Source: Escherichia phage JS10. From it: 64,000 nt of DNA. Under the pieces are notes generated by a model. It was not told the origin of the DNA and did not search any database. It saw only the letters and a list, made by a program, of their open reading frames with translations. Below are positions 7,529-7,788 of the stretch, piece by piece (positions within the stretch are counted from its first letter, which is position 1; each line of letters begins with the position of its first letter). The position numbers and the translations under genes are program-made. Location of the stretch: the sequence record EU863409; one strand, given 5' to 3'.

Positions 7529-7788
7529 TATTCTTCATCAGAATATTCTTCGTCAGAATATTCTTCATCAGAAGCTTCTGGAACCAGGGCTTTAACAGCT
7601 TCAACCAGGTCTTCGATTTTAACAGAATCACCGGTAACGCCAACTACTGCAGCAATCTCACCAAGTACTTTGGTAAGAAGGTCACAATCAGCTTTAACAC
7701 GCTGTGCATGGTCCTGAGTATCAAGGATACGAGATTTCAGGATAACGATTTCAGACTGCAGTTTCTGTTCAACGGTTTGTTCAGACAT
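7528..7788 (-). CDS. 57A: gp57A tail fiber assembly chaperone
   Basis: [26 protein letters not shown] closely matches recalled T4 gp57A N-terminus; acidic C-terminal repeat. Confidence 0.85.
7529..7573 (-). repeat. 15-bp tandem repeat (x3) encoding SDEEY repeats at 57A C-terminus
   Basis: ttcttcatcagaata repeated three times on plus strand. Confidence 0.7.

Follow-up and report, generated by a model that had tools for sequence, protein, structure and literature searches.

In this T4-like coliphage of the JS98/JS10 type, gene 57A, which encodes the tail-fibre chaperone, finishes in a short sequence that is repeated head to tail and runs into the stop codon, at the point where the gene overlaps the start of its neighbour. 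How did such an array arise, and what do its extra units do to the two genes that meet there? In the window (the whole stretch of 64,000 nucleotides analysed here), a first-pass annotation had placed a 15-bp tandem repeat in three copies at 7529-7573. Tandem Repeats Finder (TRF) returned exactly this interval as 3.0 copies of a 15-nt unit with the consensus TATTCTTCATCAGAA (period 15, 93% matches, 0 indels, score 83), and direct reading of the plus strand gave the units tattcttcatcagaa (7529-7543), tattcttcGtcagaa (7544-7558) and again tattcttcatcagaa (7559-7573). The sole mismatch, at position 7552, is a synonymous GAT/GAC difference in an Asp codon of the sense strand. As a chance control we shuffled the 64-kb window 200 times, preserving its dinucleotides, and took the best TRF score each time; the mean was 45 and the maximum 67. 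Because no shuffle (0/200) scored above 67, the array is not a chance feature, and in the unshuffled window it is outscored by the fibritin coiled-coil repeats alone. In its natural register the unit is TTCTGAYGAAGAATA, which begins on the third base of an Ala codon and finishes on base two of the stop codon. The annotation had instead written it as ttcttcatcagaata, starting from 7531, a register in which the third copy ends ..agaagc and matches at 13 of 15 positions, whereas its coordinates fit the TRF register exactly.

The assignment of the host gene to 57A was likewise borne out. The 86-aa open reading frame (ORF) matches Pfam PF17594 (GP57) with an E-value of 2.1e-28 and 98.4 bits (cut-off 27), residues 1-75 aligning to profile positions 1-75 of 75, and PHROG 1002 'tail fiber chaperone' with an E-value of 1e-26; it has gene 1 and 57B as neighbours, and its product is 100% identical to the 86-aa gp57A of JS10 (YP_002922488.1). 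The order gene 1 - 57A - 57B, all on the minus strand, is identical in T4-type and JS98 loci, and the 3′ end of gene 1 overlaps the start of 57A by 8 nt (Table 1). Among public DNA records the window is best matched by Dhakavirus (JS98-like) coliphages, with identities of up to 98.2%. All the family features examined here are present in the gene, an ordinary gp57A orthologue. The T4 protein is described as a small, helical and oligomeric chaperone that serves gp12, gp34 and gp37 (PMC3004832; PMC5899706); it is required for their trimerisation and absent from the virion (PMC3004832), and by orthology we infer the same role, as a non-virion protein, here.

Table 1. Features of the gene 1-57A-57B locus (positions in the window)
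Feature	Position	Strand	Basis or detail
Gene 1, deoxynucleotide monophosphate kinase (DNMK, PF21448)	7781..8542	-	upstream neighbour of 57A
Gene 57A, tail-fibre assembly chaperone gp57A, 86 aa + stop	7528..7788	-	Pfam, PHROG, gene order
15-nt tandem array, 3.0 copies	7529..7573	-	sense units TTCTGATGAAGAATA 7573..7559, TTCTGACGAAGAATA 7558..7544, TTCTGATGAAGAATA 7543..7529
Perfect 10-bp palindrome AGAATATTCT, two copies	7540-7549, 7555-7564	.	one per unit junction
TAATG stop/start overlap	7530..7526	-	57A stop TAA 7530..7528 shares its last A with 57B ATG 7528..7526
Gene 57B, 151 aa, Acb1 (anti-CBASS) family, PF23474	7073..7528	-	Pfam

The neighbours carry annotation problems of their own. The 57B product matches the Pfam Acb1 family PF23474 with an E-value of 9e-59 and is labelled 'RNA ligase' in PHROGs and RefSeq and 'hypothetical protein' or 'gp57B' in related GenBank/RefSeq records, so that its annotations lag behind the family assignment. 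In phage Bp7, 57B is annotated at 408 nt against 456 nt in relatives, a shortfall of 48 nt for which a frameshift or a sequencing error is a possible cause. On the other side of gene 1, the ORF at 8542..9297 (minus strand) mechanically yields 251 aa, whereas the homologous gene 3 (tail completion/tube terminator) measures 591 nt in relatives; from the sequence, its true start is probably internal.

The array is positioned in the reading frame with precision. On the minus strand it comprises the last 43 coding bases of 57A and the first two bases of the stop codon, and the sense end of the gene reads GCT TCT GAT GAA GAA TAT TCT GAC GAA GAA TAT TCT GAT GAA GAA TAA. Of the (SDEEY) repeats that the first-pass annotation had read at the end of gp57A, the first two are complete, whereas the third stops at SDEE, the stop codon occupying its 'Y' position. 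In single-copy relatives the sequence is ...GAAGC TTCTGACGAAGAATA ATGAAAAC, which encodes PEASDEE* and has the same TAATG. A Tyr codon appears at each junction because the TA of the old stop is followed by the T of the next unit; it is TAT, or TAC in two isolates. The Tyr is thus a by-product of a duplication junction through the stop codon and no part of an older motif.

The protein resembles T4 gp57A (PF17594) in its 59% identity, its position between gene 1 and 57B, the TAATG overlap, its small helical fold and its acidic C-terminus. The T4 protein, however, has 80 aa, ends ...AESADEAKDEE and has no 15-nt repeat, whereas the window protein has 86 aa, ends in (SDEEY)2-SDEE and contains Tyr, Cys and Pro; T4 gp57A has been described as free of aromatic residues, Cys and Pro (PMC3004832). 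At the DNA level, T4 57A (601-843) ends ...GCA GAT GAA GCA AAA GAT GAA GAA TAA and that of a T4-like relative (601-831) ends ...ACT GAT GAA GAA TAA, giving ADEAKDEE and TDEE, respectively. The 12 extra nucleotides in T4 may be a diverged tandem copy (GATGAAGCAAAA / GATGAAGAATAA, 10/12 matching), possibly the trace of an older duplication at the same spot.

We then compared copy number among isolates, as the annotation had proposed, in a catalogue of 28 Dhakavirus isolates made up of 27 distinct relatives and the window. Copy number is clearly not invariant: it is one, two or three. Nine of the 28 carry a single copy (JS98, IME281, EcWhh-1, MX01, E33, FB, VR5, dhaeg and IME08) and 18 carry two, in seven sequence variants: [GAC][GAC], [GAT][GAC], [GAC][c..GAC], [tcC GAC][GAC], [GAC][GAA], [tcC GAC][GAA] and [GAT][GAA]. 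The perfect [GAC][GAC] allele occurs in UP19 and Bp7, which belong to different clades. Only the window has three copies, [GAT][GAC][GAT]. In agreement with the catalogue, a 341-nt BLAST query laid over the array spanned 326 nt in 23 GenBank phage records and 311 nt in 11, and its full 341 nt in none; the length differences are exact multiples, 15 or 30 nt. The protein cluster at 90% identity (18 members) contains lengths of 76, 81 and 86 only. JS98 gp57A, for example, is identical to the window protein over residues 1-76 and ends there with a single unit, unlike the three-unit protein of the window and JS10, while those of MN04, Bp7, WG01, QL01 and others have two units and 81 aa.

The three-copy allele is the longest seen. 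Arrays of at least three copies were absent from IMG/VR and GTDB representative genomes, a further gp57A allele with at least three copies was absent from JGI metagenomes, IMG/VR and GTDB representatives, and no allele with at least four turned up in any source scanned. The sole JGI metagenome match (Ga0208946_1035785, 1020..1100) was set aside: it is an unrelated ORF ending ...SEEEYSEEEYSEEEYDDSEEEYSSD*, a coincidental (SEEEY)n repeat, and is no homologue of gp57A. A search for contigs that encode exactly this 86-aa chaperone gave no match. The exact 86-aa sequence is listed for 5 Dhakavirus entries, which indicates that the three-copy allele is stably inherited.

Could the third copy be a sequencing or assembly artefact? 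Some pipelines do stumble at this very site. The CUA3 record (PP410321.1) has runs of N through most of 57A, a duplicated ...AGAAGCTTCTGACGAAGAATA segment (PEASDEE) around them and no 57A annotation, which is probably a scaffolding problem at the locus. An array of 45 nt, however, lies far below any read length, the one- and two-copy states recur in dozens of independently sequenced genomes, the 86-aa protein is the one deposited for JS10 and for the 5 entries, and all length differences are multiples of 15 and in frame. We therefore reject an artefact and give it next to no chance.

In-frame coding minisatellites, or variable-number tandem repeats (VNTRs), arise by slipped-strand mispairing between short direct repeats, a Streisinger-type process classically studied in T4. 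The array has the properties of a coding VNTR: head-to-tail units beyond chance, a unit length divisible by three, variable copy number, and apparent gains or losses of whole units among close relatives. Compared with the usual coding VNTR it is very short, at 1-3 copies, and it lies across both a stop codon and a junction for translational coupling. In kind, it is an ordinary in-frame coding VNTR of a well-known type, in sequences that were already public (JS10). We think it likely that the array originated as an in-frame tandem duplication, by slippage or unequal exchange, and that its variation in copy number is near neutral.

On this account the ancestor would have ended ...CCA GAA GCT TCT GAC GAA GAA TAA-TG (PEASDEE*, 76 aa). 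The 15-nt segment TTCTGACGAAGAATA, which opens with the final base of the Ala codon and closes with the second stop-codon base, would then have been duplicated head to tail. With the junction inside the stop, TA plus T would give Tyr and the frame would run on into the new copy, while the original TAATG overlap with 57B would be re-created at the distal end. Each added copy would thus extend the protein by SDEEY and leave unchanged the 15 nt that precede 57B, and repeated gain and loss would produce the one, two or three copies seen in close relatives. The most likely cause would be slipped-strand mispairing, or unequal exchange between the direct repeats, while the phage replicates in the recombination-dependent manner of the T4-like group.

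To place these changes on a phylogeny, we built a neighbour-joining (NJ) tree from 1,425 nt of flanking sequence (the 3′ part of gene 1, the 57A core and 57B) with the array removed. One- and two-copy isolates are interleaved in both main clades, for a Fitch minimum of 7 changes, and every single-copy isolate within a two-copy clade lies nearer to some two-copy isolate than to any other with one copy. Such one- versus two-copy pairs differ at few sites: 4 for JS98/MN04, 5 for MX01/KIT01, 6 for E33/PSD2002 and 8 for IME281/UP19. Across the same 1,425 flanking nt in 26 isolates, the only other confirmed indel is one 3-nt event in gene 1, common to PSD2002 and E33; the flank alignment also contains a 1-nt length difference, in Bp7 only. 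Seven changes against one other confirmed indel event suggest that the array is an indel hotspot relative to its surroundings. The three-copy allele adds a further constraint. Its T/C/T Asp-codon pattern excludes an origin by a single slip from any sampled two-copy allele, because one slip can produce nothing but [a][a][b] or [a][b][b]; it lies two or more steps away from all of them.

Recombination complicates this picture. Homologous recombination among co-circulating Dhakaviruses might simply shuffle a few old alleles, one duplication and one triplication, at an array no more mutable than other DNA. We regard this as rather unlikely, but several observations fit it. Trees of the upstream and downstream flanks are mutually discordant, and the single-copy isolates JS98, IME281 and EcWhh-1 have in common a linked G eight nt downstream of the array; given that T4-like phages recombine heavily, some of the seven 'changes' may be imported alleles. 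The 57A core is also mosaic: in dhaeg, IME08, CLB_P2, AnYang and others the match to the window extends over 57B and ~20 nt into the array, beyond which the sequences diverge. In dhaeg and IME08 a divergent core (~60% amino acid identity, ...AVAQAQQESRILQEALGK...) joins the same PEASDEE* end and a near-identical 57B, which points to exchange at or near the array. Finally, in most two-copy alleles the copies have diverged (by Asp to Glu and synonymous changes), a sign of age, so that the duplication appears old and often stably transmitted.

Other observations sit poorly with shuffling of old alleles. In the single-copy isolates MX01 and E33 the haplotype of the WG01/QL01 clade comes to within ~100 nt of the array on either side, so that only a very short conversion patch could have imported their allele. 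Seven JS98-clade isolates (the window, MN04, JS98, EscoB01, UP19, IME281 and EcWhh1) are invariant over the 230 nt upstream of the array and yet have 4 array alleles, out of 6 in the whole ten-isolate clade. The recurrence of a perfect [GAC][GAC] allele in two clades and the single other confirmed indel in 1.4 kb point the same way. The first-pass description of the repeat as 'likely slippage-prone' is thus upheld in that copy-number change is scattered over the local tree, while slippage as its agent is not separable from recombination; an elevated mutation rate at the array is suggested by the comparison of isolates alone.

We next considered the protein tail itself. In an AlphaFold model of gp57A built on a 27-sequence alignment (mean pLDDT 84), residues 6-49 and 58-68 form helices with high confidence, whereas residues 69-86 (PEA plus the repeats) have no secondary structure, at a pLDDT of about 48-52. 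A PDB sequence search yielded no solved gp57A relative, the best E-values of ~0.7 being noise. The repeat is thus predicted to lie in a disordered tail outside the helical core. An acidic C-terminal tail of variable length (DEE, EE, EEE, EEEE, DEAKDEE or EDDAE) is found in all homologues examined, and in the model the repeat lengthens this probably flexible tail. Because the tail is predicted to be disordered and outside the core, changes in its length are probably tolerated and near neutral.

An adaptive role would instead have the number of SDEEY units tune gp57A oligomerisation, or the handling of gp12/gp34/gp37 variants, under selection in each phage, the added units bringing negative charge and the only aromatic residues of gp57A. 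The acidic C-terminus of every homologue examined suggests that a tail of this kind probably has a function, the junction Tyr is chemically new beside a T4 protein described as free of aromatic residues (PMC3004832), and two- and three-copy alleles persist in several isolates. Yet the tail is predicted to be disordered, copy number differs between locally near-identical isolates and a junction of TA with T gives Tyr of necessity. Conservation of the final DEE, moreover, may partly be at the nucleotide level, for 57B initiation, as GAnGAAGAATAATG is kept in most other T4-like lineages sampled. We judge selection on tail length improbable and retain near-neutral variation as the preferred account.

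That conserved end brings the array up against the start of 57B. The junction ...GAAGAATAATG is present in all one-, two- and three-copy alleles and in most other T4-like lineages examined, and in all 28 Dhakavirus alleles 57A stays in frame and still meets 57B at TAATG, the 15 nt ahead of the 57B start codon being identical throughout. Most other T4-like lineages sampled have TAATG or TGATG at 57A/57B, TGATG occurring in one locus. As judged from this arrangement, 57A and 57B form an overlapping pair, and the TAATG overlap hints at coupled re-initiation. The last 14 nt of 57A, GAnGAAGAATAATG, are conserved at the nucleotide level in T4-type, Mosigvirus-type and other lineages with differing tails. 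Because it is conserved where tails otherwise differ, the end of 57A, which in the window is the last repeat unit, may double as the initiation region of 57B. A promoter and terminator scan of 6800..8800 detected no terminator. It did return a weak sigma-70-like match within the array (minus strand, 7556..7527, 9/12), which we disregarded, as T4-like phages use other promoter types and such matches are frequent in AT-rich DNA.

The unit also has complementary ends (TTCT...AGAA-TA), so that each junction is a perfect palindrome, AGAATATTCT, which occurs three times in the window, twice within the array, against an expectation of 0.08. Only alleles of at least three copies have two junctions, and these can fold onto each other, in mRNA or in either DNA strand when single-stranded, to give a stem of 10 bp closed by a loop of 5 nt. 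The predicted energies of the 51-nt three-copy segment are -13.9 kcal/mol as RNA (z -4.3) and -7.8 and -6.9 kcal/mol as the two DNA strands, and the 10-bp stem ends 10 nt before the 57B AUG. Two copies allow a 6-bp stem over AGAAUA directly before the AUG (-7.1 kcal/mol), and one copy allows no such stem. By these folding predictions, a hairpin might promote misalignment where the DNA is single-stranded, and might change how accessible the start of 57B is.

The graded stems, 10 bp, 6 bp or none according to copy number, with a palindrome at every junction, are what a role at the RNA level would draw on, in which copy number sets the structure upstream of the 57B (Acb1) start and tunes expression of the anti-CBASS nuclease. 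The shuffle z-scores, however, are no sign of selection, since the stem follows automatically from repeating a unit with complementary ends; ribosomes finishing 57A must melt the stem, and TAATG suggests coupled re-initiation; and one or two copies suffice in most isolates. We consider such a role highly improbable. Its extension, in which the array is a heritable 'dial' for 57B/Acb1 and copy number picks the hairpin before the start, strikes us as a very long shot. If it held, the three-copy 10-bp stem would lie further upstream and free the initiation region, and slippage would adjust Acb1 output, tail charge or both between lineages facing different host defences. Like phase-variable contingency loci, the array places tandem repeats of variable copy number in or next to a coding region. 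Those loci are simple-sequence on/off switches, however, whereas here every allele built from the 15-nt unit is in frame. With a unit that is a multiple of three, and the 57A frame, the TAATG and both genes intact in all 28 alleles, there is no on/off switch, and we rejected a phase-variable contingency locus.

The 57A repeat, its polymorphism and the acidic tail all go unmentioned in the literature searched, the primary biochemistry papers on gp57A lying outside that search. As a coding VNTR, the array provides a clean small case of a stop-straddling duplication that lengthens a protein and leaves the overlapping start of the next gene undisturbed. It also supplies a handy 15-nt length marker to separate JS98/JS10-type therapeutic coliphage isolates. 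Greater weight would attach to it only if tail length or a copy-number-dependent hairpin affected fibre assembly or the expression of Acb1 (anti-CBASS).

Elsewhere in the window, further acidic C-termini are encoded by repeats. The 91-aa ORF at 37101..37376 (plus strand) has a long acidic C-terminal run of GAC/GACGAA repeats (TRF 37260..37372), and the 525-aa ORF just before it (35524..37101, plus strand) ends PDEEEEEDF. The strongest repeats of the window, with periods of 93 and 51 nt and TRF scores of up to 272, lie at 27372..27667 within the ORF 25396..27795 (plus strand), a 799-aa fibritin (wac) homologue, and presumably represent repeated coiled-coil segments.
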